Positions 1,229-23,359 of a stretch of 36,723 nt of DNA are shown here, piece by piece. Source of the stretch: a virus (Duplodnaviria; Heunggongvirae; Uroviricota; Caudoviricetes). The DNA lies in IMG/VR virus record IMGVR_UViG_2851976983_000007. One strand, given 5' to 3'. Position numbers and translations under genes: made by a program. Below the pieces are notes generated by a model. That model searched no databases. It was not told the origin of the DNA and saw only the letters and a program-made list of their open reading frames with translations. The stretch's first letter is position 1. Every line of letters begins with the position of its first letter.

Positions 1229-1262
1229 TTATCTGGATTGTGGCTAAGCCACATGATTTATG

Positions 1263-2155: not shown

Positions 2156-2159
2156 TTTG

Positions 2160-2894: not shown

Positions 2895-3084
2895 AGCACT
2901 TGCTCCTTTTCCGGAGAGGCGCTAACCTTTCACTTGCTTAGGGTAGACGGTTAGGGCCTCGGTTAAACAAAAGTGTTTTCCGGGGCCTTTCCACATCTGG
3001 CCTTCGGGTATTCCCTCCGACCATCAGCCGAAAGGCACCCGCGCGTAATCTATCGCTTTTTTGTTACTCCGGCAATTCTGCTTG

Positions 3085-3345: not shown

Positions 3346-3536
3346 AGCGACCTCCCTTAACGTGGTGTTGCCGCTATTCTAGATTGTACGATCCCTAATT
3401 CCAACTAACAGCTCGCTCTGTGCGAAGAGTGAAAATTGAACTTTCAATAGTTGTTGAACTTCCATACATCCAATGTGAAAATTCATACGTTCATAATAGT
3501 TAAAATTTAAAATATTGTATATCAGGTGAATAAAGC

Positions 3537-4559
3537 ATGGGAAGAGATATAACGCTGTACCCTAAAAAAGCAACTAGAAACGAACTTAAAAATTACCTTG
3601 AAAATTTAGGTTTTAAAAGGTGTAAACATTTGTGGGAATGGCCCCAAGGAACGTTGAATTACTCTTGGTTTGATGATACGGACTTCAAATCTACAGATGG
3701 AGTTTCGGCTGATATATATCCTGTTTCAAATGACGAATTACACATATCTGGTAATAAATGGGCATTGCATGTGCGTAATTTATATAGCGCTAGTTGGCAT
3801 GATGTAAAAATGCTTAATGATGTTCTAAAAGGCGCAAGGAGTCTTTTTGGTGGAACACTTATAGGTGATTATGGGAAAAATAGGTACGCTCCTCTATGGA
3901 AGGATTCTAGTAGTCCGATCAGTCGTGGCATTTCTTCAATATTTAATCATGTCCATCATGAGATTTCCGCTGTTAAACATGCCTTACCTGAACCTTCTAT
4001 TAAATTAAACCTACCGGAAGATGGCGGCTTATCCGAATACTTTGATTACATGCAATGTATGGATCCCAGTAGAGTTATATATAATGGATTAGTACCTTTT
4101 GCGGTTGCTATGTTTGAATACTTTTTCTCTAGAGCTTTTCAAATACTTATAAAGTACGATCCTTTCGCAATAGCAAAAAGAACATCGTATAAGCAAAAAG
4201 TTGATTTTGATATTCTGCTTGAGATAGAGAAAGGAAATATTTCAATAGAAAGTGTTATTGCAAGAAATTACACTTTTCAAAACTTAACCCACCTAAACAA
4301 AGCATATAAAGAGTGGCTGGATATAGATGTGAGAGCGATTCTTTATAAGAAAAAAAGAATTGGAAAATCAGTTGATTTTCTTGAGAATCGAATTTCTGAA
4401 ATCATACAATATAGACATGGGATAGTTCATCACTTTGAGTTGGATAGGACCTTAAATCGGGATGGATATATTCATATATTAGATGCGATAGAAAAAAGCA
4501 TAATTGAATTTATCCATTACATAGAAGGCAAATACAAATTTAAATTAAATGCGTATTAA
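3537..4559 (+). CDS. Low-GC cargo protein (340 aa), unknown function; C-terminal helical region with R-x4-H (QYRHGIVHH) suggests a HEPN-like domain; candidate abortive-infection/defence gene
   Basis: Strongly AT-rich ORF inserted between ogr and D on the opposite strand; own AT-rich upstream region with short direct repeats (GTGAAAATT x2, AATAGTT x2) and a downstream hairpin; no ATPase or nuclease motif I can recognise. Confidence 0.7.
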   Translation: MGRDITLYPKKATRNELKNYLENLGFKRCKHLWEWPQGTLNYSWFDDTDFKSTDGVSADIYPVSNDELHISGNKWALHVRNLYSASWHDVKMLNDVLKGARSLFGGTLIGDYGKNRYAPLWKDSSSPISRGISSIFNHVHHEISAVKHALPEPSIKLNLPEDGGLSEYFDYMQCMDPSRVIYNGLVPFAVAMFEYFFSRAFQILIKYDPFAIAKRTSYKQKVDFDILLEIEKGNISIESVIARNYTFQNLTHLNKAYKEWLDIDVRAILYKKKRIGKSVDFLENRISEIIQYRHGIVHHFELDRTLNRDGYIHILDAIEKSIIEFIHYIEGKYKFKLNAY

Positions 4560-4587
4560 GCAATCAACCTTACATAGGGATGACAAA

Positions 4588-4626
4588 GTCCGCTTCTGAC
4601 ACGGAGCGGACCGTCGTTTATGTTTA
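4588..4626 (+). terminator. Intrinsic terminator-like hairpin (GTCCGCT...AGCGGAC) followed by T-rich tract, downstream of the cargo gene
   Basis: Read from sequence; 7-bp stem, 10-nt loop, then CGTCGTTTATGTTT. Confidence 0.45.
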
Positions 4627-4679
4627 ATTCTATACTGTAAACTTGCCAGTTTAAGTTTGAGCTAATATGTCTAAGTTGC

Positions 4680-5789
4680 TCACTCTGTTTCTGCTATCCA
4701 TTCCGGGATTTTTGCCTCAAGCTCAAGCTGTGTGGTAAAGCCGCTGTTATCAATGGTGTGCTCGGCTTTCGCAATAATCCAGTCCTGATTATCAATCTCG
4801 CTTTTAAATCCTGTTACCGTGCCATGCATTTCGGGGTAGAGTTCTGCACGTCCACGCACCAGCGTGATGGAAAACGATGCGGCTCCGCGTTGTAGCTGCT
4901 GCCACTTTGCCGCCGCTGCGCGTCTTGCTGCCTGCTCGTTCTGATAAGTCTTGCGTAACACAAACACATTGCCTTCCGCGCCTTCCATATAATCACCTTC
5001 ACGGCTGCTGCTTTTCTCCTTTTTGGGTTTTGGCGGTTTGCGGCGTTTCACGCTGACTTTTTTCTTTTTCCCGTAATTAAGATCAAGCCAGTAAGCGCGT
5101 ACCCCCGTATACGCCTCGCGGTCAGCAATGCGGAACTGATGGCGATCGCCGCTGCTGCGTGTGATGGCGAACGATGGCAACGGCTGGCCCTGTGCGTTTA
5201 CGCCACCGCCGGGCATGATGAATAACAGATTACCGCTTTTTACCGTGGTGATTGCGCCCAGCATTTCCGCCATGCGCGTAAGGAAGGACATGTCGCTTTC
5301 TTCAGTCTGGTCGGCGTGGTCGATTTCGATATCCATCAGCATTTCGCTGATTTGCGGTTTCAGGCCGTACCGATGAGCGATGGCGGATACCACACGTTCA
5401 ACGGTCACATCATGCCAGGACGCCTCACGTTTAACATTAAATTCATCCCGAAAATCTGCGCTTCTGGCTGAAACAGTCAGCCTGTCCGGCGGTCCTTCGT
5501 GAGCGATTTCATCAACAATGTAAGTGCCTTTTTCTGTCAGCGGTTCCCCTTTCCAGCCAATGAGAACCGTCAGACGCGCGCCCCGTGGCGGTAGCTGCAA
5601 CTGGCCATCGGCATCATCCAGCGTGATGGTGAGCTGGTCCGCCTCAAATCCCCGGTTGTCGGTCAGTGACAGGCTCATCAGGCGTTCTGCCACGCCGGAC
5701 AGCGTTTTACCCTCGGCGAGAATATCAAAATCCGGCATTTTCACGGGGTCTGTGCCCTGACTGAGCAATTGCATGGTGGTGTCGGTCAT
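4680..5789 (-). CDS. D: Tail protein D (GPD family)
   Basis: Segments ITRSSGDRHQFRIADREAYTGVRAYW, SFSITLVRGRAELY and SGFTTQLELE parallel P2 gpD; start taken at MTDTTMQLL preceded by GGAGGGAG (track ORF runs on to 5921). Confidence 0.85.
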   Translation of the reverse strand: MTDTTMQLLSQGTDPVKMPDFDILAEGKTLSGVAERLMSLSLTDNRGFEADQLTITLDDADGQLQLPPRGARLTVLIGWKGEPLTEKGTYIVDEIAHEGPPDRLTVSARSADFRDEFNVKREASWHDVTVERVVSAIAHRYGLKPQISEMLMDIEIDHADQTEESDMSFLTRMAEMLGAITTVKSGNLLFIMPGGGVNAQGQPLPSFAITRSSGDRHQFRIADREAYTGVRAYWLDLNYGKKKKVSVKRRKPPKPKKEKSSSREGDYMEGAEGNVFVLRKTYQNEQAARRAAAAKWQQLQRGAASFSITLVRGRAELYPEMHGTVTGFKSEIDNQDWIIAKAEHTIDNSGFTTQLELEAKIPEWIAETE

Positions 5790-5946
5790 CTGCTCCCTCC
5801 CTGTGTGGCATGGTCGCATGTGCGTGCGGAGGGGGTTACTGCTTTTTGTTGTCGCCGTGGCGGGAGAATGGCGCAGGGGTGAGATTACGCGCGTGGTGGG
5901 TGATGATTGTTGCCGAATCATTTAACGGATACAAGGGGCTGAAGCT

Positions 5947-7131
5947 ATGAGTGAAACTCGTTTTCATGGTGCCCGTGTTACGGAAAATACCGACCTGGTA
6001 ACAGCGATTAACGATGTTGATTCCAGCGTTATCGGTATCGTGGCAACGGCGGATGATGCGGACGCGAAGCTGTTCCCGCTGAACAAGCCCACACTGCTGA
6101 CCCGCGTCAATGACGTGCTGGGAAAATGCGGGACAACGGGGACGCTTTATCGTGCGCTTAAGGCCATCGCAGACCAGGTGAGCACAAAGGTGATCGTCGT
6201 TCGCGTGGCTGAACACAAAGAAGAAGACGGAAAGACGCAGGATCAACTGGTTATCGGTGGTTCTGAGGATGACGGCAGCTATACGGGGATGTATGCGCTG
6301 CTTGTTGCAGAGCAGGATGAAAGCATCGGATACCGTCCGCGTATTCTGGCCGCGCCGGAGCTGGACACGGAGGCTGTAACAAAATCCCTGTGCGTGATTG
6401 CAGGTAAACTGCGCGCGTTTGTGTATGCCTCATGTCACGGCTGTAACACGATGGCTGAGGCGATTACCTACCGCCAGAAATTCAACGAACGTGAGGTGAT
6501 GCTCTTATGGCCGGACTTCATCGCCTACAACCCGAAAAGTGGCAAAAACGAAACGTTCCCCGCGCCTGCCTATGCGTGCGGCCTTCGTGCGTACATTGAC
6601 CATGAGCAGGGATGGCACAAATCACTGTCCAACGTTCCGGTTAAAAATGTGCTGGGGATGTCGAGGCATGTGTTCTGGTCGTTACAGGCCGAAGACAGTG
6701 ATGCCAACAGCCTCAACAACAAAGAAATCACGACCATTATTCGTCGCAACGGGTTCCGCTTCTGGGGCAACCGCACACCGGAAACGAACGCCTACATCTT
6801 TGAGGTGTATACCCGAACCGCACAGGTGCTGGCTGATTCAATTGCGGAAGCGCAGTTTGAAACCATCGACAGTCCACTGACGCCTGCGAACGTGAAGGAT
6901 GTTATCAGTGCCATCAGGGCAAAACTGGATTCACTGGTTACTGCCGGGAAACTGATTGGCGCGGAGTGCTGGTATGACGTGGTGGATAACAGCACCACGG
7001 ATTTACGTCAGGGGCGTGTGCGTATTCGCTACAAATATACGCCCGTTCCGCCACTGGAAGACATGGAGCTTTACCAGACGTTTACTGATGAATACTTTGA
7101 ACCCGCATTTGCGGTTCTGGGAGGTGCCTGA
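5947..7131 (+). CDS. FI: Contractile tail sheath protein FI
   Basis: 394 aa, position and size match P2 FI; followed directly by tube gene. Confidence 0.9.
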   Translation: MSETRFHGARVTENTDLVTAINDVDSSVIGIVATADDADAKLFPLNKPTLLTRVNDVLGKCGTTGTLYRALKAIADQVSTKVIVVRVAEHKEEDGKTQDQLVIGGSEDDGSYTGMYALLVAEQDESIGYRPRILAAPELDTEAVTKSLCVIAGKLRAFVYASCHGCNTMAEAITYRQKFNEREVMLLWPDFIAYNPKSGKNETFPAPAYACGLRAYIDHEQGWHKSLSNVPVKNVLGMSRHVFWSLQAEDSDANSLNNKEITTIIRRNGFRFWGNRTPETNAYIFEVYTRTAQVLADSIAEAQFETIDSPLTPANVKDVISAIRAKLDSLVTAGKLIGAECWYDVVDNSTTDLRQGRVRIRYKYTPVPPLEDMELYQTFTDEYFEPAFAVLGGA

Positions 7132-7643
7132 TGGCTGTGCCAAAACATCTTCGCTTTTTTACGCTGTTTGTGGATGGTGAAAACGAAGTGGGTAAGGTGA
7201 CGTCCGTCACTCTGCCCAAACTGACGCGCAAAACCGACAGCTACCGGGGTGGTGGCATGATGGGGGCGGTAAGTATTGATCTCGGTCTGGACGACTCTGC
7301 GCTTGATGCGAGCTTTGTCATGGGGGGCGCAGTTCGTGCGCTGTTCCTTAAGTATGGCGGCACGATTGACGGCACGCTGCTGCGTTTTGCGGGTGAATAC
7401 TACACCGATGCAGAAAGCGACCTGTATGAAGTCGAAATGCGCGGACGTGTGACGGAAATTGATATGGGGGAAGCCAAACAGGGCGAAGCCACATCACACA
7501 CTTACGCCATTAAAAACACCTACTACAAGCTGAGTGTTAACGATCGCCCGTTGTGGGAGATTGACCTGCTGAACTTCATTTACCGGAAGGACGGCAAGGA
7601 CATTGTGTCCGATCGCATCCGTTCCGCGCTTGGGCTTGGCTGA
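7131..7643 (+). CDS. FII: Tail tube protein FII
   Basis: 170 aa, ATGA overlap with FI stop; P2 FII-like size and position. Confidence 0.9.
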   Translation: MAVPKHLRFFTLFVDGENEVGKVTSVTLPKLTRKTDSYRGGGMMGAVSIDLGLDDSALDASFVMGGAVRALFLKYGGTIDGTLLRFAGEYYTDAESDLYEVEMRGRVTEIDMGEAKQGEATSHTYAIKNTYYKLSVNDRPLWEIDLLNFIYRKDGKDIVSDRIRSALGLG

Positions 7644-7697
7644 TAAGTAATATGCAGGCGGCGCAGTGCGTCGCCTCTGACTGAAAGGAGTTTCCTG

Positions 7698-8063
7698 ATG
7701 AAAGAGACGAAAAACATCGATACCGAAAACACGGTAGTTACTGACACTGTGAAAGAAACCAGTGAGCGTGGCGTAAAACTTACCCAACCAATTGAGCGAG
7801 GCGGCGAAAAAATCACGTATGTGGAGATCACCGGGGCTATTGAGCAGGCTGGATCTCTGCGAGATTTGTCGCTGTCTGATGTGCTGAATCTGAAAGCGGA
7901 ATCCATGTTTACGCTGCTGTCACGCGTGACATCACCGCGACTGGATGAAGTGACGATCAAAAAAATGGCATCCCGTGACTTTATTCAGTTATGTGTGGTT
8001 GCCGTAAATTTTTTGAGCGGTGCGGACTCTGGCGGGAAGAACGAACAGGCGACGGAAGCCTGA
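7698..8063 (+). CDS. E: Tail assembly chaperone E
   Basis: 121 aa upstream of the tape-measure gene; contains slippery heptamer. Confidence 0.85.
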   Translation: MKETKNIDTENTVVTDTVKETSERGVKLTQPIERGGEKITYVEITGAIEQAGSLRDLSLSDVLNLKAESMFTLLSRVTSPRLDEVTIKKMASRDFIQLCVVAVNFLSGADSGGKNEQATEA

Positions 8064-8227
8064 TCACGGTTGTGTGCTTTGAGCACATAGAAGACTTTGT
8101 GGCAGATATTGCCGTTATTTTTAACTGGTCGCCCGCCGAAATCTTCATGATGACGCCCGGCGAAGTGGTTAGCTGGCGTGAGCGGGCGGCACTTCGCAGC
8201 GGGAATGCAGACAATGAAGACTCTTGA
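7698..8227 (+). CDS. E+E' frameshift product: frame 0 to about 8015, then -1 frame to 8227
   Basis: TTTTTTG slippery heptamer at about 8009-8015 in frame T-TTT-TTG; the -1 frame ORF (track 7991..8227) runs on to overlap the T start; conserved chaperone frameshift in P2-like and other tailed phages. Confidence 0.7.
8009..8015 (+). promoter_or_regulatory. Programmed -1 ribosomal frameshift slippery site TTTTTTG
   Basis: Seen in sequence; position relative to E and the -1 ORF. Confidence 0.65.
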
Positions 8228-11021
8228 TATCCGGGTCGCTTTCAGCGCCGTTGACAGGCTGACCCGGCCTGCCGAAAACGCCCGCCGCCTGATGGGGCAG
8301 TTTGGTGACTCCATCCAGCGAACGCAGGGGGCGATCAAAAATCTCGAGCGTCAGGCGCGATCATTTGAGCGCGCCCGCGACGCTGTCAGTAAAGCGGATG
8401 CTGGCATATTGAAAGCACGACGCCAGCTTAACGCCCTTAATCAGTTACAACGCACGGGTACAGTGCTCAGCGAAAAACAACAAAAGCTGATGCAGCAGTT
8501 AAGCACCCGGCTTGAACACCTGAATGAATCGCGCACACGTGAAATTCAGAAAATGCGGGAGCTTGGCGGAGAGCTGAAACGCCACGGCATTTCCCTGACA
8601 GGCAGCGATAACACCATCCAGCAGGCCATCAGACGCACCGAACAGTACAACAACCAGCTTGAACGCGAACGGCAGGCGCTTGCGCGTGTAACGCGGGCGC
8701 GTGAGCGGTATTCGCGCGCGCAGGAAACTGCGGGAAAACTGAAAACAGGTGGTGCGCTGGCAATTGGTGCGGCAGCGGCTGGCGGCTATGCTGCCGGGCG
8801 TTTTTTGCAGCCTGCGATCGGGTTCGGGAAAGAGATGTCCCGCGTTCAGGCACTGACGCGAATCGACAAAAACAGCCCGCAGTTTAAGGCGCTGCGTGAG
8901 CAGGCGTTAAAACTTGGCTCTGAAACACAGTTTACTGCGAGTGATGCCGCCAGTGGGCAGAGCTTTCTGGCAATGGCTGGTTTTACTCCGCAGGCCATTC
9001 AGGCCGCATTGCCCGGTGTTCTTAATATGGCGCTGGCAGGTGGCGTCGAACTCGGCGAGACGGCTGATATAGGCTCCAATATCCTCACACAATTCAACCT
9101 GACAGCCGATCAAATGGACCGTGTTGGCGATACGCTGACAGCAGCATTCACCCGGACCAATACTGATTTACGCGCGCTGGGCGAAACCATGAAGTATACC
9201 GGTCCGGTTGCCGCAAAACTTGGTATCAGTCTTGAAGAAGCGGCAGCCATGGCCGGGATGCTTGCCAATAATGGTCTTCGTGGAAGCGATGCTGGTACAG
9301 CCATGCGCGCAAGTCTGTCCCGCCTTGCATCACCGCCAAAAGCTGCGGCTGATGCGCTGAAAGAGCTGGGGGTGTCAGTTGCTGACGCCAGAGGCAAAAT
9401 GCGCCCGATGGAGGATGTGCTGCTTGATCTCTATAAGGCGACACAAAAATACGGACAGGTGGACCAGGTCTCCTTCTTCAAGGACATCGCCGGAGAAGAG
9501 GCGTTCGTTGGTTTGCAGACGCTTGTTGCGGCGGCTGGTTCAGGAGAGCTGCAAAAACTGACCAGAGAATTGCAGGGGGCAAGGGGAGAGGCCGATCGCG
9601 TTGCAAAAGTAATGGCCGATAATCTTGATGGGGACCTGAAAAATCTCGACAGCGCATGGGAAGGTCTTCGTATTCGCATCAGTGATCTGGTTGACGGTCC
9701 GCTGCGTTCTGTCACGCAGTGGCTCACGCGGGTGCTTGAAAAAATCACCTCGCTGGCGCAGGCCCATCCGGTACTGACGCGCCAGCTACTGATAGCAGGC
9801 GGTGCGTTGCTGGCAATGACTGCAACGGTTGGCTCGTTGTCGCTGGCTATTGGTGTGCTTGCTGGCCCGCTGGCAAAACTGCGTCTTGGCTTTTCCCTCC
9901 TGACCGGTTCAATGAATGCTGTCAGACTCCTGCCAGCACTATGGGGAATGGTGACGGGTTCCGTTTCGTTACTGGGGGGCGCTATCGGGGCGTTGTTCAG
10001 TCCGGTCGGTCTTATCGTGGCTGCGCTTGCCGGAGCTGCCGTTCTCATCTGGAAATACTGGGATCCCATCAGGGCATTTTTTGCCGGGGTGTTCAGCGGG
10101 ATTATGGAAAGGCTGACCCCGTTGCGCGAAACCTTTGAACGGTTTGGTCCTGTTTTTGACGCAATCGGAAGCGGGATCAGCCAGGTGTTTAACTGGTTTA
10201 AATCGCTGTTGTCACCGATGGAGTCCAGCAAGGAAACGCTGGATAAATGTACCAGTGCTGGCGAGATATTCGGTAACGTTCTTGGCGGTGCGTTACAACT
10301 TGTTTTGACACCTGCAAAAATGCTACTGGATACGCTGGCGTGGATACTTGAAAAACTTGGCGTCCTTCCGGATGAAGCGGAAAGGGCGCGCAAGAAAATC
10401 GAAGACGCACAGCGTGAGGCCATTCTTCAGGACAAGGTTGCCTTGCTTCAGGGGGACCTGGCGAAAATCAATCCGCCGAAGCCTGTGGAAAATGGCAATG
10501 GCACCGGAGGTGATAACCCCAAAGACAATAAACCGCTCACAGACAGCAATACCGGTACGCTGCGCAGACTCAGCAAAATTGCTGATAACACAGGTAAGCT
10601 GGTTGAGGAGACGAAAAAACGCATTGGCCCCGGCGATATTGTCTTTAAGAACCTGCCCCGAGCACTTGCTGTTCGTGGGGAGTGGCAGGAGCGGAAGATT
10701 GCGCAGGTCAGTAAGCCTGCCCCCGCAATTAATATCACACCCGTGGTCTCGGCTCCGCTGCCTCCGGCGCTGGTCCCTGTTGTTGCGGCCAGCTCCCGCC
10801 CGGTGGCGGAGGCTATACGATCTCCAGTGGCATCAGTTCCTGTAACTTCCCGTAACCGGGAGCCTGTTGCCTCCGGATTTGGTGGTGAAATTCATGTTCA
10901 TCTGCATAACGTTGTTACGCAGAATCCCCGCGAACTGGCGAAACTGGTCGGTGAAATGGTCAGGGCAGAAATGGAACGGCGCGCCCGTGCCGGGCGTGGC
11001 AGTTTTTACGATAAAGATTGA
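8205..11021 (+). CDS. T: Tail tape measure protein T
   Basis: About 940 aa, helical N-terminus and hydrophobic middle typical of tape-measure proteins; start uncertain (GTG 8178, ATG 8205 or 8214). Confidence 0.85.
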   Translation: MQTMKTLDIRVAFSAVDRLTRPAENARRLMGQFGDSIQRTQGAIKNLERQARSFERARDAVSKADAGILKARRQLNALNQLQRTGTVLSEKQQKLMQQLSTRLEHLNESRTREIQKMRELGGELKRHGISLTGSDNTIQQAIRRTEQYNNQLERERQALARVTRARERYSRAQETAGKLKTGGALAIGAAAAGGYAAGRFLQPAIGFGKEMSRVQALTRIDKNSPQFKALREQALKLGSETQFTASDAASGQSFLAMAGFTPQAIQAALPGVLNMALAGGVELGETADIGSNILTQFNLTADQMDRVGDTLTAAFTRTNTDLRALGETMKYTGPVAAKLGISLEEAAAMAGMLANNGLRGSDAGTAMRASLSRLASPPKAAADALKELGVSVADARGKMRPMEDVLLDLYKATQKYGQVDQVSFFKDIAGEEAFVGLQTLVAAAGSGELQKLTRELQGARGEADRVAKVMADNLDGDLKNLDSAWEGLRIRISDLVDGPLRSVTQWLTRVLEKITSLAQAHPVLTRQLLIAGGALLAMTATVGSLSLAIGVLAGPLAKLRLGFSLLTGSMNAVRLLPALWGMVTGSVSLLGGAIGALFSPVGLIVAALAGAAVLIWKYWDPIRAFFAGVFSGIMERLTPLRETFERFGPVFDAIGSGISQVFNWFKSLLSPMESSKETLDKCTSAGEIFGNVLGGALQLVLTPAKMLLDTLAWILEKLGVLPDEAERARKKIEDAQREAILQDKVALLQGDLAKINPPKPVENGNGTGGDNPKDNKPLTDSNTGTLRRLSKIADNTGKLVEETKKRIGPGDIVFKNLPRALAVRGEWQERKIAQVSKPAPAINITPVVSAPLPPALVPVVAASSRPVAEAIRSPVASVPVTSRNREPVASGFGGEIHVHLHNVVTQNPRELAKLVGEMVRAEMERRARAGRGSFYDKD

Positions 11022-11027
11022 GGAGTC

Positions 11028-11522
11028 ATGGCCATGATGATGATCTACGGCATGTTTGTTTTTGAGCTGCGCACGCTGCCGCATCAGCAGTTACAGCAAA
11101 ACAAAAGCTGGCGGCATGTGAAAAATGAACGCGTTAACCGTTCAGCAAGCTGGCAGTATATCGGTGCAGGTGATGATCGCATCGTTCTTTCTGGTGTGCT
11201 TTATCCTGAAATTACAGGTGGCGAAGTGTCGCTGTCGCTGCTGACCACGCAGGCGTATACAGGACGACCCTGGCCTTTGATTGATGGCGTCGGGCAGATT
11301 TACGGCATGTATGTCCTGACCGGAACGAATACGACCCGTTCCGAGTTTGATCGCTACGGTAAGGCGAAAAAGATAGAATTTTCACTGACCCTTGAACGCT
11401 GTGATGAGGATTTGCGGGAGCGCCTGCAATCCTCATCGTTCAGCGATATGCTGTCCGGCTTCAAAGATAAAGTGACATCATCTCTTAACAGCGCGGTCAG
11501 TTCAGTTAAAGGGCTGTTCTGA
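11028..11522 (+). CDS. U: Tail protein U
   Basis: 164 aa, GMFVFELRTLPHQ... resembles P2 gpU N-terminus; follows T. Confidence 0.85.
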   Translation: MAMMMIYGMFVFELRTLPHQQLQQNKSWRHVKNERVNRSASWQYIGAGDDRIVLSGVLYPEITGGEVSLSLLTTQAYTGRPWPLIDGVGQIYGMYVLTGTNTTRSEFDRYGKAKKIEFSLTLERCDEDLRERLQSSSFSDMLSGFKDKVTSSLNSAVSSVKGLF

Positions 11523-11533
11523 TTTAACACAAA

Positions 11534-11570
11534 AACCGCTAATGACCAGATTAGCGGTTATTTTGTTTCC
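11534..11570. terminator. Hairpin AACCGCTAAT-(6)-ATTAGCGGTT followed by ATTTTGTTT; terminator after U, overlapping the 3' end of the invertase ORF
   Basis: Seen in sequence. Confidence 0.5.
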
Positions 11571-12145
11571 TGACTCTTCTCAATTGTTCCGCTTGATTCT
11601 CCTGCGGGGTGGTAACGATAAATCGTCGATATACCAATGCCGTAAATTATTGCCAGTTGTTTTCTGTCGTGCCCGTTTTTGATCAGCCTTGCTATTTGCT
11701 CATGCTGTTCTTTTGTCAGCTTCGGGCGACGTCCGCCTGTGCGCCCTCGTGCGCGCGCTGCAGCCAGTCCGGCCAGTGTACGTTCAACAATTAATTCACG
11801 TTCCATTTCAGCCAGGGCACCCATCACGTGGAAGAAAAAACGCCCCATTGGAGAAGATGTATCTATGCTGTCGGTCAGACTGCGAAAATTAATCCCTCGC
11901 TCCCGTAGTTCCCCGACGAGAGAAATCAGATGTTTCATGCTTCGCCCGAGGCGATCCAGTTTCCAGACAACCAGCGTGTCGCCTTTTTGAAGGCGCTTTA
12001 AAGCGCGTTTTAATCCCGGTCGGTCTGTCTTTGTCCCGCTTAATTTATCTTCAAATATTTGTTCGCATCCTGCACAAACAAGAGCGTTTCGTTGCAGGTC
12101 TGTATTCTGGTCATTTGTTGATACGCGAACATAGCCAATAAGCAT
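11558..12145 (-). CDS. Serine DNA invertase, Hin/Gin/Pin/Cin family
   Basis: MLIGYVRVSTNDQNTDLQRNAL...TLVVWKLDRLGRS...SPMGRFFFHVMGALAEMERELI...GRRPKLT: near-canonical Hin-family sequence with catalytic Ser in RVST; start at second ATG, which has GGGGG spacing. Confidence 0.9.
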   Translation of the reverse strand: MLIGYVRVSTNDQNTDLQRNALVCAGCEQIFEDKLSGTKTDRPGLKRALKRLQKGDTLVVWKLDRLGRSMKHLISLVGELRERGINFRSLTDSIDTSSPMGRFFFHVMGALAEMERELIVERTLAGLAAARARGRTGGRRPKLTKEQHEQIARLIKNGHDRKQLAIIYGIGISTIYRYHPAGESSGTIEKSQETK

Positions 12146-12200
12146 GATCATCCCCCTGAATAAAAACCGGGGATGATGCCAGTTAGCTGTTACCTCTGCA

Positions 12201-12226
12201 TTTTCTTAAACGTTGGTTTGGAGAAG
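12201..12226. other. Candidate invertase crossover site, left (26 bp, 12-2-12: TTTTCTTAAACG TT GGTTTGGAGAAG)
   Basis: hix/gix-like half-sites TTnTCnnAAAC; about 50 bp from the invertase start; inverted relative to the right site. Confidence 0.55.
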
Positions 12227-12925
12227 GGCCGATGGGTTGTTGGCCCGGGCAATGCAATACTGTATGGACAGCTGGTCCGGTATGGTGTTTTGGTTCAACG
12301 GGCGAAATTTTCTGCCTCTGATTACCCTGTGCTGGCGAAGTGTTCCTTCGCTGTATTACCTGAAGCCCGGTGATTTCATTCGTATCTGATGACGGCGAGG
12401 TCAGACGGGTCGAATATTGCTGGCAGGCAGCTACAAACTTTTCTCAGTTTCCGGAATATAGGCGAGGTGCGGGACACGCAATTAACTTCATGATGCATCG
12501 CCGAAATCAGCCAGGATTTCAGATTTAATTTCACAGTAATCTGTGGTGATGTGTGAATTTTTTGCTGTCAGCCGCGAAAATTGCATTTATTTCTGGTGAG
12601 GCTAATAATGAACCTGTTTGATGAAATGGGCTGGCTACAGTGCCGGCGATATGCGTGTTTTATTATGATGCTGAACATCTGAGTATACGGGCTGTCTGAT
12701 GAATATAATACTGCGTAAGTATGCCCGCCTGTTCATGGTATTGCCCTGGCGAACATTGGAAGAGGCAGTATTTACAGGTAAGGATGGACCATGAAAAGAC
12801 CATCGCAATGAGACTGTTATCAATCGAAATGGTCGCTGTAAGTGGATTATATCGGTGCCATCAAAACGTTATGTCAGCTTTACCGTTACGCCATTGATAA
12901 TGGATGGTGAGAATGGGTGACAGAT
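12227..12925. repeat. Left arm of long inverted duplication (about 85-90 percent identical to 13220-13968, inverted), carrying an alternative tail-fibre C-terminal segment and a frameshifted tfa copy
   Basis: Manual alignment of + strand here against the reverse complement of the right arm; many substitutions and 1-nt indels. Confidence 0.7.
12608..12925 (+). pseudogene. tfa' remnant (tail fibre assembly chaperone pseudogene), multiple frameshifts relative to the intact tfa
   Basis: Begins ATGAACCTGTTTGATGAAATGGGCTGG, homologous to tfa ATGAAACCTGTTTTTGATGAAAATGGGCTGG, but stops after about 25 codons. Confidence 0.6.
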
Positions 12926-13157
12926 ACTAAGGCCACACGGTGCCGCAGTAGAGCGCAGAAGCACAGCGCCAGTCACTGATTGATGCTGCAATGGCTTCCA
13001 TCAGCCTGATTCAGCTGAATTACAGGCCGGGCGGAAGCTGACGCAGGCAGAACCACCCGGCTTAACGCCGTGCTGATTCATGCCGGTCGACATCAGCCCG
13101 GCCGATGTCATGCCTGAATGCGGAGCAGCCATTCAATATCTGGCGCTGGTTCGCCGT

Positions 13158-13535
13158 TCAGTGCGCCAGTTGTGCCTTATATTGCACCATTCTCACCATC
13201 CATTTATCATATGGCGTTAACGGTGAAAGCGTGACATAACCGTTTTTGATGGCACCGATATAATCCACTGTAACAGCAGCACCATTTTCGATTGAGTAAA
13301 CAGTCTCATTGCGATGGTCTTCTTCATGGCTCCATCCCTTACCTGTAAATACTGCCACTCTTCCCGGGATGTTTTCGCCAGGGTCAATACCAGTGGAACA
13401 GGCGGGCATACTTACGCCAGTATTAATATATTCATCAGACCAGCCCGTATACTCAGATGTTTCAGCATCATAATAAAAACAACGCATATCGCCCGGCACT
13501 GTAGCCAGCCCATTTTCATCAAAAACAGGTTTCAT
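13158..13535 (-). CDS. G: Tail fibre assembly chaperone (Tfa, N-terminal Tfa domain only)
   Basis: 125 aa; ...PACSTGIDPGENIPGRVAVFTGKGWSHEEDHRNETVY... parallels lambda Tfa ...[39 protein letters not shown]... Confidence 0.85.
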   Translation of the reverse strand: MKPVFDENGLATVPGDMRCFYYDAETSEYTGWSDEYINTGVSMPACSTGIDPGENIPGRVAVFTGKGWSHEEDHRNETVYSIENGAAVTVDYIGAIKNGYVTLSPLTPYDKWMVRMVQYKAQLAH

Positions 13536-13968
13536 TATTTAGCCCTCACCAGAAAGTTAAATGCAATATTTCGCGGTCTGACAGCAACAAAATTCACACC
13601 ATCACCCACAGAGTTACTGGTGAAATTAAATCGTGAAAATCCTGGCTGATTTCCGGCGATGCCATCATGAAAGTTAATTGCGTGTCCCGCACCTTCGCCT
13701 ATATTCCGGCAACTGAGAAAGTTTGTAGCTGCCTGCCAGCTTAATAATCGCGACCACCGTCTGCACCTCGCCGTCATCCAGATACGAATGAAATCACGCG
13801 GGCTTCAGGTAATACCAGCGAAGGAAACACTTTCGCCAGCACAGGTAATCAGAGCAGAAAATTTCGCCCCGTTGAACTTCAAAACACCATACCGGACCAG
13901 CTGTCGATTACAGTATTTGGCATTGCCGCGGAGGCCCAGAAGAACGGAACGCCAATAGCTGGAGCACC
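13220..13968. repeat. Right arm of the inverted duplication (H C-terminal region plus 5' two-thirds of tfa)
   Basis: See left arm; pairing derived by manual alignment. Confidence 0.7.
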
Positions 13969-15030
13969 TTCTCCCAAACCAAGGTATGCGAGAAGACCAG
14001 CAACATCCTTTCCACTCAAATTAGTCAGCGTATTGTCCAGCGGTTGTTTGTCTGCCAGTGCATTAAGCACTGTTGTTGAAAAGTTAGGGTCATTCCCCAG
14101 CGCCGCCGCCAGTTCATTCAGTGTATCCAGTGCCGCAGGGGCAGAACCCACCATTGCCGCAATTGCTGATTTCACAAAAGCTGTGGTGGCAATCTGTGTA
14201 TTGTTGACCGACTGTGCCGCAGTAGGTGCTGTTGGCGTTCCGGTAAGTGCCGGACTCGATAGCGGCGCTTTCAGTGCCAGCGCATTGTTAATGGTGGTGC
14301 TGAATTTCGGGTCATTGTTAATGGCTGCGGCAATTTCTTTCAGTGTGTCCAGCGTGGCTGGCGCACCGTTAATCAGATCGGTAATAGCGGCCTGAACAAA
14401 CTCAGTGGTCGCAATCCGCGTGGTGTTATTTCCTGCGGCAGGCGTCGGCGCTTTTGGTTCTCCGGTAAATGTCGGATTATGTTTCTGCGCATACTGGGTA
14501 TGAGGATCCTGTGCGGCAATGTGGTTTCTCATCTGGTCATCCACATACAGCTTTAATTCCAGGACTTTATCATCCACGTATTTACGGGTCGCCAGTACCA
14601 CCGACGGGTCGATTTTCAGCGTGATGGCTTCGGTGTTCGTGACAACCAGAATCATGCGGATAGTCTGGGTGCGTCCACTGCCTTCCTGCAACTGCGGTTT
14701 GTACGTTTCCGGGCAGTTTGCCACCGCAATGAGTACACCTTCATCATCATAAAGACCAATCTCACGGATCCAGAATCCTCCCTCGTTTTCAGGGATGATT
14801 TGCTCAGCAATAATCTGGCTCTGATTGTTAGGGTCAACACTCAGAAGATTCAGCGGTGCAATGCGTTTCTGGTTAATCAGTTTTGTTTGTGCAGGGTCTG
14901 GTGTTGGTAACACACCATTTGCATCACCAACGGCCATTTGCGTCAGATTCAGCTTACTGCCGAGCATCGTCGCGTTAGCCAGTCGTGCCGCGCCCTGATT
15001 AGTCAGAATGGCGTAGTATTTCACTGTCAT
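13879..15030 (-). CDS. H: Tail fibre protein H: P2 H-like constant N-terminal region, then only 34 aa after the crossover site
   Basis: N-terminus ...MAVGDANG...EGGFWIREIGLYDDEGVLIAVAN...YKPQLQEGSGRTQTIRMI... parallels P2 gpH; 383 aa versus about 670 in P2, so the distal region is short or decayed. Confidence 0.85.
   Translation of the reverse strand: MTVKYYAILTNQGAARLANATMLGSKLNLTQMAVGDANGVLPTPDPAQTKLINQKRIAPLNLLSVDPNNQSQIIAEQIIPENEGGFWIREIGLYDDEGVLIAVANCPETYKPQLQEGSGRTQTIRMILVVTNTEAITLKIDPSVVLATRKYVDDKVLELKLYVDDQMRNHIAAQDPHTQYAQKHNPTFTGEPKAPTPAAGNNTTRIATTEFVQAAITDLINGAPATLDTLKEIAAAINNDPKFSTTINNALALKAPLSSPALTGTPTAPTAAQSVNNTQIATTAFVKSAIAAMVGSAPAALDTLNELAAALGNDPNFSTTVLNALADKQPLDNTLTNLSGKDVAGLLAYLGLGEGAPAIGVPFFWASAAMPNTVIDSWSGMVF
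13969..13994. other. Candidate invertase crossover site, right (TTCTCCCAAACC AA GGTATGCGAGAA), inside the H coding sequence
   Basis: Left half closely matches my recollection of the hixL left half (TTCTTGAAAACC); in frame it encodes AYLGLGEG of H; inverted relative to the left site. Confidence 0.6.
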
Positions 15031-15635
15031 GCGTTTACTCTCAGATTATCAATTAAATGAATGGCCGGGGCAGGGAAATAATCCCCTTCGACAATAATGG
15101 ACTCCGGGGTGTAGGGATAAACCGTCAGGGCATCGCCGTGATAGCATCCCGTACCAACGAAAATCTTTCCGTTCACACTCAGGCTGATCGCCAGCCCCGT
15201 CAGATGGCGACTTACTGGTTTTGCATCCGCAATAAGGCGCTCAAGTTCCTGATACATTTCATCGGTGATGCCCTGATCAAGTACTCCGACAACAATGCGA
15301 AATGTTCCTGGCTCCTCGTTGAGTTGCCACCACTCCTTTACTTCAATCAGGTAGCCGAGAGGCTCCACGGCTCTTCGCAGTGCGCTGATGGTCCCTTTGT
15401 GTCGGTGTATCAGCCATGCATCACGAATCACCTGTCGCTTTGTCTCTTCCGGCCAGTTGCGATCCCAGCGGTCAACGGAAAACGCCCAGGCGAGATAAGG
15501 CAGCAAATGCACCGGGCAGGTGTCCGGTGACCACAGCGTGTTGAGGTCTACCGGGATGTCTGTAATGCGCGCTCCGACTGCTTCGGCGCAACGCATGAAA
15601 CGGCTGGCTGATGGCGGTAACAGTGAATTACTCAT
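15027..15635 (-). CDS. I: Baseplate protein I
   Basis: Start at MSNSLLPP with AGGTGG SD; overlaps J stop; track ORF extends to 15668. Confidence 0.8.
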   Translation of the reverse strand: MSNSLLPPSASRFMRCAEAVGARITDIPVDLNTLWSPDTCPVHLLPYLAWAFSVDRWDRNWPEETKRQVIRDAWLIHRHKGTISALRRAVEPLGYLIEVKEWWQLNEEPGTFRIVVGVLDQGITDEMYQELERLIADAKPVSRHLTGLAISLSVNGKIFVGTGCYHGDALTVYPYTPESIIVEGDYFPAPAIHLIDNLRVNA

Positions 15636-16524
15636 TGCGCCCACCTTCGCTGATGGTGAATGACTCACAGCGCGCCGCCTGTATGTCGCTGATGGCCAGA
15701 TTCTGTGTGGGTTCGATTATCTCCACGCGTTGCACACCGTGCACATGCAGTGCGGCAGCAATGGCGGACAACGCCACGTCCTGACCGATAAGCCCCTGCT
15801 CAGCCAGCCACTTCCTGAACGACGATTCAGCCGCCGCCAGAATAGGTTCGGATTCCGGACCGGGGTAAAAGTACAGTTTTGCATTCAGCCGCCATGTCAC
15901 GATTCTGGCGCTCTGTACGGTCAGGCGGTCGGCCACCGGGCGGGTATCCTCTGCATTCAGAACGGCGCGAACGGTATTAAGCAACGCCTCCGTTGCTGTG
16001 CCGTCGCCTTCAGTGGACAGGATGGAAACCGTCACATTTGCCGGAGACGGACTGATAGCCCGCGCATCACGCACCAGACCGCTGGCGCTGCGGGCAAAAT
16101 ACTCGTATGCACCTGACGGGCCAGCAACACTCAGGCCGTCGTACGCCCGCTGCGCCCGCAGTCTCAGCGAGGTGTCGCTCTCCATCACCGCGTCGGTGGT
16201 ATCCGTTGCCGGAGTGATAACCAGGCGCTTTGTGTTCATATTGCCCGCGAGGTTGTCCAGGTCTGTCCCGGCGCTGTGGCTTAACATGCAGGCGCGTGCC
16301 CCCTCGTTAACCCGCTGGCGTAACAGCATTTCACGAAACGACATGGTTTGAGCGATAACGTTAAGGGGTTCCGATTCCAGCTCCAGCGCGGCGGAAACGG
16401 CTTCACGCTGTTCGGCGGGATAAGCCGCAATCATCATGGCCTTTGTGTCAGCCAGAATTGCCTCAAAGTCAGGCTCCGCGATGATGGCGGGGTCCGGTAA
16501 CTGTGAAAGGTCAACGGCGGGCAT
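15628..16524 (-). CDS. J: Baseplate assembly protein J
   Basis: 298 aa; position between W and I. Confidence 0.85.
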   Translation of the reverse strand: MPAVDLSQLPDPAIIAEPDFEAILADTKAMMIAAYPAEQREAVSAALELESEPLNVIAQTMSFREMLLRQRVNEGARACMLSHSAGTDLDNLAGNMNTKRLVITPATDTTDAVMESDTSLRLRAQRAYDGLSVAGPSGAYEYFARSASGLVRDARAISPSPANVTVSILSTEGDGTATEALLNTVRAVLNAEDTRPVADRLTVQSARIVTWRLNAKLYFYPGPESEPILAAAESSFRKWLAEQGLIGQDVALSAIAAALHVHGVQRVEIIEPTQNLAISDIQAARCESFTISEGGRNE

Positions 16525-16527
16525 GAT

Positions 16528-16878
16528 TTACTCCCTTAGCGTGATGGTTAATTCAACATTCTGCATGGTCTGCATGACAGTGCCCGACAGCGTCACCCCG
16601 GCGCGGCCTCCCGCTTTCCAGACAACGTCGATGGCATCCAGGGCAATGCGGGGTTCCCATCGTGTCAGCGCAATCACGGCAGCACTCATGCATTGCAGAC
16701 GCGTGGTGTTATTCATGGGTTCGTCAATCAAATCAGGCACAAGGCTGCCATATTCCCGTCGCATAACCCGGCTTGCCAGCGGGGTGGTCAGGATATCCCT
16801 GACTGACTGTTTCAGGTGCTCCATATCGTTCAGGTTTCCCGTCCCGTCCGGATTCATTCCTGTGTAGCGGGTTGTCAC
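16528..16878 (-). CDS. W: Baseplate wedge protein W (GPW/gp25 family)
   Basis: 116 aa; position and size. Confidence 0.85.
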   Translation of the reverse strand: MTTRYTGMNPDGTGNLNDMEHLKQSVRDILTTPLASRVMRREYGSLVPDLIDEPMNNTTRLQCMSAAVIALTRWEPRIALDAIDVVWKAGGRAGVTLSGTVMQTMQNVELTITLRE

Positions 16879-19804: not shown

Positions 19805-20011
19805 CTACTCCCCCCACAACTGAATCATTTCTCGTTTCTTCTTCTCCGGCTCCGGCATCTCCACGTCCTGCCCGGCGTCCAGAAATACCTGCTGACAGAG
19901 TCCGGGGTTGGCATCCAGCACCTTTTCGGTGACGCCCTGCGTCGTGCCGTAGTACCGGAAACAGAGCGAATCCACGGTGTCGCCTTCCAGTGCCTTCACT
20001 TTCATCAGCAC
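19805..20011 (-). CDS. X: Tail protein X
   Basis: 68 aa; ...LCFRYYGTTQGVTEKVLDANPGL... parallels P2 gpX. Confidence 0.8.
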   Translation of the reverse strand: MLMKVKALEGDTVDSLCFRYYGTTQGVTEKVLDANPGLCQQVFLDAGQDVEMPEPEKKKREMIQLWGE

Positions 20012-20499
20012 AGCTCCGCAAAAATTCGCGGGCGGCGCAGAATGTCAGAGATGGCCCAGCTCACATCGCGCCACAAATCCGATGTCTGTATATCCAGTGC
20101 GTCCGCCCGGCGGTCGCCCTTGTCCGTTGTGTCCGCATCGCGGTAACGCTCCAGAATCAGGGCGCGCGTGGCGGTATAAACCGCATTGCGCCAGTGCCAG
20201 AGATTGACGCTTTCTCCGTTAATTACGGGTGCCGGAACATCGGCCAGCGTCTGATGGCCAGCCGCCTGCTGTTCCTGCTGCCATGCTTCCAGCTCGCGGG
20301 TAACGTGAGCCACCGCCCCGGTGGCGGTATGCAGCAGGCGGGAGGTGGTCACGCGCCCCGGCAGTCGTACCGCCAGACGCAGCTCACGCAGCACAATATC
20401 CGGCCAGAATGCACCCGCTGAAATACGGGTATCACCATCATCGGTATCGGTGATGTCGTCCTCTGCGGGTCCGGGGTTGGTTCTGGCAACCATACTCAT
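20005..20499 (-). CDS. L: Head completion/stabilisation protein L
   Basis: About 165 aa between M and X; start at ATG with AGGAG (track ORF starts at GTG 20508). Confidence 0.8.
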   Translation of the reverse strand: MSMVARTNPGPAEDDITDTDDGDTRISAGAFWPDIVLRELRLAVRLPGRVTTSRLLHTATGAVAHVTRELEAWQQEQQAAGHQTLADVPAPVINGESVNLWHWRNAVYTATRALILERYRDADTTDKGDRRADALDIQTSDLWRDVSWAISDILRRPRIFAELC

Positions 20500-20600
20500 G
20501 GGGTTCACTCCTGAAAAAATCGGGCGGTGGGTGCGCGGTGTAAACGGTCACGGAGTCAAACCGGAACACCGCGCACGCCGCCCGCTGACGGGGTCAGTCG

Positions 20601-21401
20601 TTAACCGCGCTTCGCCTTCTGCGTCGCGGTGGTTTTTCGTGTTGCAGGCTTCCGCGTTGTCTTTTTACTTTTGCTGCTTTCGTCCTGCGCCTGCGGTGCG
20701 CTGGCGTCTTCTGGTTCGGCTGCGGAATCGGCTTTTTTCAGGGCGCGGGAAAGGGTTGCAATCTCGCGTTTCACACCTGCGTTCGGGTTCAGGTGCATCG
20801 CTTCGCGCAGCAGCTTCAGTGATAAGGCCATGTTGTCTGCATCGGTCAGACCACGACGGGCAAAGGCGCACGCCTTGCATAATTTGGCGCGTACTTCGTC
20901 CGGCATGTCCTGGTCGGTGACAATCTTCCGGAGGGTGTCCAGTGGTTCGATAAAGGCGGACAAATCCGCGTCGGCATCCGCCCCGGCCTGCGTCAGTACC
21001 GGGTTGCAGATTTCTTCGGTCAGCACTGTGGCAGCAGTACGGCCAAAGTTATCCGGCATAATGAGGTTATGACGGACCACATACGCACCAATACGCAACG
21101 CCAGCGGAAGATCGCCGCAGTCAATCGCCCACACCATCAGCGTGGCAATCACTTCATCCTGCTGCCCGCCGTCAGCCTCCAGCGTTCCCTCAATCCAGCC
21201 GGAAAAATCCGGCAACAACTCTTTTTTGATGGCGGCTTTCGCGCTTCTGGCCTGTACGCCCTTAAGCCGGGCCTGTGCCAGACGCAGACGATACAGCACC
21301 TCTTCATGCGCGGTACGCGCGGCGTGGTCCACGCCTTCATTCGCCCGGCCTGCGCGCTGTGCCATCACGTTCTGCCAGTGTTGCTGTGCAGGAGTAATCA
21401 T
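20601..21401 (-). CDS. M: Terminase endonuclease (small) subunit M
   Basis: 266 aa; GGAGAG SD; position between N and L. Confidence 0.85.
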   Translation of the reverse strand: MITPAQQHWQNVMAQRAGRANEGVDHAARTAHEEVLYRLRLAQARLKGVQARSAKAAIKKELLPDFSGWIEGTLEADGGQQDEVIATLMVWAIDCGDLPLALRIGAYVVRHNLIMPDNFGRTAATVLTEEICNPVLTQAGADADADLSAFIEPLDTLRKIVTDQDMPDEVRAKLCKACAFARRGLTDADNMALSLKLLREAMHLNPNAGVKREIATLSRALKKADSAAEPEDASAPQAQDESSKSKKTTRKPATRKTTATQKAKRG

Positions 21402-21446
21402 TTGTTCTCTCCGTTACTGGCGGGCATGATGCCCGCCGTGAGTTGA

Positions 21447-22499
21447 TTAGCTGTCGGCGAACTTCAGGCCAGTGACCATCGCGCACTTGCCATAGTCTTC
21501 AACGACATAAGCGTCATTGATGGACTGGTAGGTGGCGATGCGGTTGTATTCCGGCTCGTCTTTCATCAGGCGACGCATTGAACCTTTCTGCCAGTAAATC
21601 GACAGGTTGTTGAACGAGGTGATCAGCATCGTTGCATCCGGGAAGAACGGCGCAAGGAACACGCCCAGCCCGCCAATGGTGCGCGATGACAGGATGAGCT
21701 GCCCGGCGAGTAATTCCGCATTGGGATTCTGGCCGCTGATGCTGTTCAGCACGGGCAGACGCAGCGAGTTAAACAGGTTGCGCCCCATAATCACCACGAG
21801 GTCGTCAGCTTCCTTGTGCCATTCATCCAACAGGGATGAACGCGCGTCCTGTACCAGTGCATCAGCGTTCGCATACTTACCCGCGTGCGCCACGGTGTTG
21901 TCCATGTTGCGGGAGGTCAGCGTCACGTCATTCATAACGCGTTCGCTGGCGTCGGTTCTGATGTGCTCCAGCCAGCCCACGTTAACGTCCTGAAGCAGCT
22001 TGTTGGTGCTGAAGTTGGACTCATCCGCGTGAGACGTGCCGTTGAAACCGATCATGATGCGGTCAAGCGCCACCTGTCGGGCAATCTGTGCGCTGATGCG
22101 GGACTGAAAATCAGGGTGTGCCGACCAGGCATCAAGCTGCGGATACGAAATAAACGTGTCGTAGTTCACCTGTTCGCACTGGTATTTGCGGTTTTTCAGA
22201 TCAACCACGTTATTCGGGTTACGGCGTTTTGTGCCGTCATAACTGGTATTCGTGCGCGCAATCGGCCCGGTGGTATCCAGGAGGATTTTTTCGCCTTTCT
22301 GGTCGGTCACGCCGATCACGTTAATTCTTTTTGTAAATTCGGTGCTTTCCTTTGAGGCGTTTTCAAAACGCTGCTGTACCGAGGGTTCCACGGTAAATCG
22401 CGATACCAGTGCGGAAACCGGGATATTGTTAAGCGACGCCTGCTGCGCCATATAGCAACCCAGCTTGTTGCGGGTAATATCTGACATCACCAGATTCAT
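21447..22499 (-). CDS. N: Major capsid protein N
   Basis: 350 aa; ...FTVEPSVQQ...GFNGTSHADE...VEDYGKCA... parallels P2 gpN. Confidence 0.9.
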   Translation of the reverse strand: MNLVMSDITRNKLGCYMAQQASLNNIPVSALVSRFTVEPSVQQRFENASKESTEFTKRINVIGVTDQKGEKILLDTTGPIARTNTSYDGTKRRNPNNVVDLKNRKYQCEQVNYDTFISYPQLDAWSAHPDFQSRISAQIARQVALDRIMIGFNGTSHADESNFSTNKLLQDVNVGWLEHIRTDASERVMNDVTLTSRNMDNTVAHAGKYANADALVQDARSSLLDEWHKEADDLVVIMGRNLFNSLRLPVLNSISGQNPNAELLAGQLILSSRTIGGLGVFLAPFFPDATMLITSFNNLSIYWQKGSMRRLMKDEPEYNRIATYQSINDAYVVEDYGKCAMVTGLKFADS

Positions 22500-22522
22500 A
22501 AAAAATTTGCTCCTTTGTCTTA

Positions 22523-23359
22523 TCAGAAGTCAGCCAGCTGGTCGGAGGCTGCGCCCGTTGCGGTGAACCGATTCTGCGGATCGCCGTCCTGCGTGCGCAG
22601 TTTTTCCTTCAGTGCTGCCAGCTCTGTGGTCAGTAAAGTGATTTTCTGGCTGTCCTGCTGATGGCGGGTTTCCAGCACATTAAAACGGTCGATAATGTCG
22701 GCCTGTGACGTTGCGACACCTTCCACCGCTTCCTGAATACGGGAGAAACTGGCGTCATCCGCTTTGCGGCCACGGCCAATAATCCCCATAACGCGGTTAA
22801 ACCACTGGGTGCCTTCTTCCTGACGTTGTTCGGTGAGTTCGATAAGTTCTGACTCCATAGCGGCGGTAAACATCGCCACGTCTCCCTGCTGACAGTTGAA
22901 TGTCATCAGTTGCATACGTTGTTGTGCCGCAAAGGCCAGACGTTCCGTGCCCAGGCTGGCAGGGGTGTCGGTCATTGCCAGCCCGCGCAGGTAAGGGCCT
23001 CCCGTGATGGTTGACTGTGGTTCCAGCTCAATACTGGAGTAAATTTTTTTACCATCGTTAAGCAGGGACATCATGCGAGCGGTCGGCTCAATTTCGGCAT
23101 ACAGTGCCGTGCGACCTGCCAGCGGGCCATCGGTTATGTCTTCGGTGCTCAACCCCACAACATCGCCCATAGCGGAAAACTCGCTACCGGGGAGTGGTGA
23201 CAGGATGTGCTCAATATTCACACGTGCACCATAAACGGACGGGTTATAACTGGTGGCGGCAGCTTTCAGCATGTCGCCGTTGATTTCGCGCCCGTCTGCC
23301 GTTACACCGGAGACAGCCACGCGAAACTTTTTGCGGGATGTCTTTTTTTCATTAGCCAT
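22523..23359 (-). CDS. O: Capsid scaffolding protein O
   Basis: Start at MANEKKTSRKKFRVAVSGVTADGREI with AGGGG SD; parallels P2 gpO N-terminus; track ORF extends to 23392. Confidence 0.85.
   Translation of the reverse strand: MANEKKTSRKKFRVAVSGVTADGREINGDMLKAAATSYNPSVYGARVNIEHILSPLPGSEFSAMGDVVGLSTEDITDGPLAGRTALYAEIEPTARMMSLLNDGKKIYSSIELEPQSTITGGPYLRGLAMTDTPASLGTERLAFAAQQRMQLMTFNCQQGDVAMFTAAMESELIELTEQRQEEGTQWFNRVMGIIGRGRKADDASFSRIQEAVEGVATSQADIIDRFNVLETRHQQDSQKITLLTTELAALKEKLRTQDGDPQNRFTATGAASDQLADF

Follow-up and report, generated by a model that had tools for sequence, protein, structure and literature searches.

The DNA analyzed here (the window; 36,723 nucleotides of IMG/VR virus record IMGVR_UViG_2851976983_000007) holds, judging from its list of open reading frames (ORFs) and annotation matches, a P2-like prophage and a flank of host DNA. 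By sequence, the host element is best placed as a P2-like prophage of the Gemsvirus type (Peduoviridae). Its tail module runs V-W-J-I-H-tfa on the minus strand (ORFs from 17456 to 13158), in agreement with the annotation of Escherichia phage 500465-2 (NC_049343.1; taxonomy Peduoviridae; Gemsvirus), and residues 1 to 150 of H match the P2-type N-terminal domain (Pfam Phage_tail_fib; 9.6 × 10−63). To the left of the module lie a tape-measure gene (8178 to 11021, plus strand), a tail gene (11028 to 11522, plus strand), and an intact gene for a serine DNA invertase of the Gin/Cin/Pin/Hin family (11558 to 12151, minus strand). Farther left, on the minus strand, a 297-aa TagO-like gene (1263 to 2155) is split into ORFs of 93 and 78 aa at position 1904, where the window has A7 and the sister prophages have A8. 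Either a sequencing error in the homopolymer or a genuine slip variant could explain A7, which two other complete genomes (strains H1 and DEC5A) share at 100% identity.

The invertase ORF encodes 197 aa (195 aa in the sister annotation, where the start is placed 2 codons later) and is identical to the 500465-2 copy. It contains the Pfam domains Resolvase (1.4 × 10−50) and HTH_7 (1.7 × 10−13), conserves the GYVRVST active-site motif, and matches the Mu Gin structures 4M6F and 3UJ3 (E about 10−100), differing from them at a single position among the first 103 residues aligned. Over its first ∼290 nt, the gene has ∼96% DNA identity to Mu gin (count from the alignment); in Mu, this 5′ region of gin contains the Fis-dependent recombinational enhancer (sis). 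The 5′ end of the gene is thus close in sequence to Mu gin (window 11850 to 12151 versus Mu locus 4593 to 4890), and the neighboring fiber genes are unrelated to Mu S, which suggests from sequence comparison that the invertase may travel between phage types as its own cassette.

Two 26-bp crossover sites, inverted relative to each other and each with a 2-bp core, bound the segment next to this gene. The right site (13969 to 13994; TTCTCCCAAACC AA GGTATGCGAGAA, with the central AA at 13981 to 13982) was located by sequence search and from the inversion boundaries, and it lies within the H codons for ...LGLGE, the constant part of H ending ...AGLLAYLGLGE. Comparison with sister loci placed the left site at 12201 to 12225 (TTTTCTTAAACG TT GGTTTG-GAGAA, where the hyphen marks a base missing from the inner half-site). 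This half-site reads GGTTTAGGAGAA in the unflipped orientation, GGTTTGGGAGAA in the flipped orientation, and GGTTTGGAGAA in the window; the missing base is the A/G position that differs between orientations, and the sister loci have the site in full. This left site can be aligned with Mu gix and resembles both the Phi2 sites of E. coli EC958 and the invertase consensus listed in the same paper (PMC4134206). A 29-nt inverted pair at 12264 to 12292 and 13880 to 13908 was also considered as the crossover sites and was rejected, the true sites being further out.

The segment itself is assembled as two opposed gene sets. Beside the invertase, on the plus strand, is a copy of Hv, the variable C-terminal part of H (12226 to 12607), in the position that it takes in the flipped orientation and with many 1-nt deletions; it is collinear with the locus of strain 503025, whose annotation has the counterpart Hv fragment at 2210 to 2671. 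A flipped-orientation copy of tfa follows (12608 to 13127, plus strand; ATG at 12608; collinear with 503025 locus positions 2671 to 3264). Its intact form encodes 197 aa, and it is broken by 1-nt deletions. Next comes a blend zone in which the consensus changes allele (13128 to 13200), delimited by k-mer painting, by alignments to both alleles, and by 25 deletions in 13100 to 13199. To its right, on the minus strand, codons 1 to 112 of the unflipped tfa are error free (13200 to 13535; tblastn match to tfa residues 1 to 112 at 100% identity; 0 deletions in 13210 to 13700), and the listed tfa ORF (13158 to 13535; 125 aa) extends into the blend zone. Alignment and repair located Hv in the expressed position (13538 to 13981, minus strand; 151 aa in intact form) with 10 one-base deletions. 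The H tail-fiber ORF as assembled (13879 to 15030, minus strand; 383 aa; identified from the ORF list, Pfam, and tblastn) has a constant part identical to that of the sisters and is truncated by a frameshift at about 13884.

Each of the features that the initial annotation had described in this region was borne out. The arms are inverted copies (12248 to 12916 versus 13187 to 13927; 88.2% identity in an alignment of 744 columns, of which 10 are mismatches and 78 contain gaps), and the left one does carry a broken tfa copy, with a plus-strand Hv end and tfa that contain many 1-nt gaps. H stops 34 codons beyond the crossover site when counted from the central AA of the right site. The 343 nt from the end of H to the beginning of tfa (13536 to 13878, minus strand) contain stops in each of the three frames, and one of these frames encodes the protein-like remnant pointed out earlier, which ends ...NFTSNSVGDGVNFVAVRPRNIAFNFLVRAK (also given as ...RNIAFNFLVRAK). 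The length of 383 aa reported for H is likewise correct; the ∼670 aa of P2 was the wrong yardstick for it, since the sister-strain counterpart has 501 or 468 aa. Two points had been missed. The left arm is the same cassette in the other orientation and not a second, decaying paralogue (H residues 389 to 469 were recovered from it by tblastn as pieces in two frames), and the assembly lacks the true second cassette (Hv′ plus tfa′).

The best match to the window is 500465-2, with the E. coli B7A and TW10573 chromosomes scoring equally; on the basis of matching search statistics and shared annotation, we take the B7A prophage to be 500465-2. In a global alignment of window positions 10000 to 16600, the stretches 10000 to 12218 and 13936 to 16600 are identical to 500465-2 and all differences fall in 12219 to 13935, such that 2.2 kb on the left and 2.7 kb on the right, ∼4.9 kb in all, have zero differences. 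Compared with the whole NC_049343.1 record, window positions 1 to 12229 have 0 mismatches and 3 gaps.

The reference record has peculiarities of its own. Relative to window positions 19815 to 26361, NC_049343.1 (7073 to 535) lacks 12 single bases, mostly in homopolymers, and it annotates terminase, portal, and scaffold each in several fragments, while the ORFs of the window are intact (583 aa and 348 aa); the errors in this comparison belong to the reference record, not to the window. This "complete genome" is a prophage prediction: its positions 25946 to 32936 (compare window positions 1 to 996) hold host genes (flk, an MFS transporter, a fabB-like gene, mnmC, and a transposase), and it is without the early region present in the window at 26894 to 36723.

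Both orientations of the segment occur intact among the sister prophages. The locus of strain 503025 is the 500465-2 locus with one block (2221 to 4030; 1,810 bp) exactly reverse-complemented and 0 other differences in 6,655 bp, and the boundaries of this block in locus coordinates lie just inside the crossover sites. In the 500465-2 locus, H (501 aa) is followed by tfa (197 aa), and the opposite strand carries tfa′ (146 aa) and a 132-aa ORF with the alternative H end. In strain 503025, H has 468 aa, and its C-terminal end is a Gp53-like_C domain. The intact cassettes are therefore Hv (151 aa) plus tfa (197 aa) and Hv′ (118 aa) plus tfa′ (146 aa), with a Caudo_TAP chaperone behind each variable end. 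Strains 503025, 503440, and 503829 carry the flipped allele. Junction probes searched against complete E. coli genomes at ≥80% coverage found the invertase next to Hv in 248 and next to Hv′ in 114; the former junction is thus about twice as common, in a count that mixes related prophages and is no sure guide to an orientation bias. PacBio RS II was the platform used for the sister strains (PMC6446980). Annotation noise is typical of invertible fiber loci: in the B7A locus (3580 to 5085), RefSeq splits an intact 501-aa H ORF into a pair of pseudogene fragments ("partial in the middle of a contig"), and the silent Hv copy of strain 503025 is likewise annotated as a pseudogene.

In these sisters with identical flanks, a continuous H frame reaches the start of tfa, and the genes are intact. 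The state of the arms, which looked decayed in the initial annotation, is not biological decay. Putting back 10 bases in 13700 to 13884 (the deletions lie at about 13707, 13710, 13717, 13748, 13772, 13777, 13797, 13845, 13853, and 13884) restored an H of 501 aa, with P366A as the sole difference from the sister protein; a continuous H frame of this kind was what the initial annotation had named as refuting its reading. All 10 Hv-breaking deletions are in runs of 2 to 5 identical bases. The suggestion that the receptor-binding region had been lost is unsupported. The other explanation offered at that time, namely repeat collapse or indel errors, is the one that the evidence favors.

Aligned piecewise, the window has a chimeric structure. 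Positions 12000 to 13146 are collinear with the flipped allele (503025 locus 2001 to 3283), and positions 13140 to 14200 are collinear with the unflipped allele (500465-2 locus 3170 to 4255). The Hv-tfa cassette is therefore found twice, once per strand, as the two arms, and Hv′ and tfa′ are missing save for ∼60 garbled nucleotides of the tfa′ 3′ end. In a painting with 11-mers, words specific to the flipped allele reach ∼13140, and those specific to the unflipped allele span ∼13200 to 13975. In the zone of ∼70 nt that separates the two stretches, allele-specific words interleave in the order flipped, unflipped, flipped, unflipped, which is the look of a consensus drawn from two read populations and not of a single recombination junction. 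Such blending is demonstrable only at 13128 to 13200; a second candidate at 12219 to 12265 was dropped, since deletions alone account for its alignment with the flipped allele. The noisy left arm was found in none of 5,426 complete E. coli genomes (best, 88.4%), and a 40-mer taken from it had no exact match in the viral or genome contig collections.

The errors are almost exclusively one-base losses and are confined to the invertible block. Relative to the flipped allele, the left part (12000 to 13146) has 136 one-base deletions, 0 insertions, and 1 substitution; relative to the unflipped allele, the right part (13140 to 14200) has 25 deletions, 0 insertions, and 4 substitutions. These sum to 161 deletions, 0 insertions, and 5 substitutions over about 1.7 kb, with none outside 12221 to 13935. 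(A four-way MAFFT alignment mis-scores the window arm, giving 139 "substitutions"; the pairwise optimum, which we used here, has 1.) The deletion rate per run climbs with homopolymer length, from 0.09 at length 1 through 0.31 and 0.51 to ≥0.75 at lengths of ≥4. Because the two cassette copies in the window conflict at 13368 and 13935, the substitutions at these positions are not strain single-nucleotide polymorphisms. The first lost base belongs to the left crossover site, where it sits in the A/G-polymorphic stretch of the inner half; hence, the errors begin where the two orientations first differ.

We then asked which bases were lost. The two alleles were aligned over the left arm, and template runs were sorted by whether they were shared in register with the competing allele. 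If Hv′/tfa′ reads had been piled onto an Hv/tfa backbone, bases shared in register should survive and backbone-specific bases should be voted out. Deletions affected 19 of 455 shared runs (4.2%) and 107 of 322 unshared runs (33%; Fisher P = 9 × 10−28), a result that was stable across three scoring schemes. The effect persisted at run length 1 (3.7% versus 20.9%) and in every quarter of the left arm. Shuffled competitors gave a mean of 13% versus 20%, with run length acting as a mild confound, and 0 of 200 shuffles reached a P below 6 × 10−7. In the right arm, which has only 25 deletions, the same comparison was weak (P = 0.03 to 0.8 across scoring schemes), as would fit a flipped allele in the minority. 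The left-arm deletions track the sequence of the absent cassette; therefore, both orientations were present in the sequenced sample.

We conclude, with a probability of roughly 0.9, that this locus is an ordinary Gin-type invertible switch of which both orientations were sequenced and then merged by assembly into a chimeric consensus. The serine invertase (11558 to 12151) flips the ∼1.8-kb segment between the two 26-bp sites, joining the constant 5′ part of H either to Hv and then tfa (H of 501 aa) or to Hv′ and then tfa′ (H of 468 aa), and the exchange of variable ends switches the receptor-binding end of the fiber and, with it, receptor specificity. The sequenced DNA would have contained both orientations, which the assembly would have merged, with the left half of the segment on a flipped backbone (Hv and tfa on the plus strand) and the right half on an unflipped one (tfa and Hv on the minus strand). 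Because the halves would have been built on opposite alleles, one cassette is duplicated as an inverted repeat and the other (Hv′ plus tfa′) is lost. Reads of the opposite orientation piled onto each backbone would then have voted bases out, leaving ∼160 single-base deletions and almost nothing else. The cause probably lies in read-level consensus of long reads, as for the PacBio-sequenced sisters, and the consensus by itself, through its error pattern, implies a culture of mixed orientation. Some points count against the merged-assembly account: the A-rc(X)-X-B backbone is not a path in a simple assembly graph of the two orientations, the uncorrected chimera would be ∼110 nt longer than the true segment, and the comparison with the competing allele is weak in the right arm. 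The chimeric structure, the deletion-only spectrum and its restriction to the invertible block, the dependence on the competing allele, and the intact sister alleles are shown directly, whereas the read-level cause and the assembler step that led to the chimera are inferred.

Three other explanations (decay, a palindromic rearrangement, and a hairpin read) are improbable even when taken jointly, and every one of them conflicts with one or more strong observations. The best of them, itself quite improbable, is a real palindromic rearrangement in which gene conversion or aberrant recombination replaced Hv′ and tfa′ with an inverted Hv-tfa, the indels arising from poor consensus over the inverted repeat. 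It would account for a cassette that is assembled twice in inverted positions and for the disappearance of Hv′/tfa′ except for the remaining ∼60 nt. However, the deletions depend on Hv′/tfa′ in register (P about 10−27), so that cassette was in the sequenced DNA; the interleaved k-mers at the center are unlike a single junction; and none of the best genome matches has such a structure. A variant of this idea, which we regard as very improbable, confines the rearrangement to a fraction of cells: a real palindromic Hv-tfa/tfa-Hv form with Hv′/tfa′ deleted, produced by aberrant invertase action or hairpin-mediated recombination, would have been assembled alongside the normal alleles.

An equally poor candidate is a chimeric read that folded back on itself as a hairpin (an overlooked adapter could produce one) and would have seeded a palindromic consensus with no relation to inversion. 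The sequence is indeed palindromic around about 13090 to 13190, but a fold-back on the H side would put reverse-complemented H to the left of the left arm, where the actual flank is the invertase gene, identical to that of the sisters. No SMRTbell adapter remnant was found at the palindrome center in a search allowing up to 8 errors, and the flipped arrangement is one that three sequenced strains (503025, 503440, and 503829) really carry. True decay in vivo, with the segment pseudogenized and both cassettes frameshifted after loss of selection, is the least credible: H and both tfa copies are broken, with stops in all frames, and the TagO-like gene, outside the segment, is also broken by a frameshift (A8 to A7 at 1904), but decay is at odds with 161 deletions, 0 insertions, and 5 substitutions in ∼1.7 kb beside ∼4.9 kb of difference-free flank, at positions that follow the sequence of an absent allele and start in the stretch where the orientations first differ, when natural cassette variants differ by substitutions only (13 and 22, with 0 internal indels, in the relatives from APEC IMT5155 and JNEC-KY180).

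With the merged consensus of two orientations as the preferred reading, a defective prophage or a lost receptor-binding region should not be concluded from the window sequence. The locus is instead a worked example of an active inversion switch corrupting a consensus, and the artifact shows itself in errors that are all deletions and stay within the invertible block, in a palindrome of chimeric origin, and in the absence of one cassette. Errors of this kind can be recognized even when no reads are at hand, by asking whether the bases that were lost are the ones unshared with the other allele. The artifact is also a sign that inversion was under way in the culture that was sequenced. The switch is of the Mu G type and governs host range, and its carrier is a common P2-like prophage of E. 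coli.

The underlying system is already known, and the locus adds no new biology. The prophages of 500465-2 (NC_049343.1), B7A, TW10573, 503025, 503440, and 503829 share the element, flanks, invertase, crossover sites, and Hv-tfa cassette with the window; 500465-2 and its sisters have an intact segment and the second cassette (Hv′ with Gp53-like_C, and tfa′ of 146 aa), whereas the window lacks this cassette and carries ∼160 one-base deletions. The same mirror-image scheme is found in the Mu G segment with Gin, as well as in the P1 C segment with Cin and the e14 P segment with Pin. The Mu layout is matched by the intact sister loci: a constant 5′ fiber part, a variable end plus tfa, tfa′ plus the alternative variable end, and an invertase gene. 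The catalytic domain of Mu Gin is nearly identical to that of the prophage invertase, and the 26-bp sites align with gix. In contrast, the segment here is ∼1.8 kb versus ∼3 kb in Mu, and the host is a P2-like prophage. Sequence comparison detected no significant similarity between H and Mu S and a weak match between tfa and Mu U (E = 0.007). The closest parallel at the assembly level is E. coli EC958, in which ∼50% of PacBio reads had a prophage tail-fiber segment inverted, giving spurious contigs and indel clusters (Forde et al. 2014; PMC4134206); those authors cautioned against merging such alleles into the chromosome. The EC958 Phi2 sites, ...GGTTTAGGAGAA and ...AAACGTT GGTTTGGGGGAA, resemble the sites here. 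In EC958, however, the assembly gave the alternative allele a contig of its own and it was recognized, whereas here the alleles were fused into one deletion-laden chimera.
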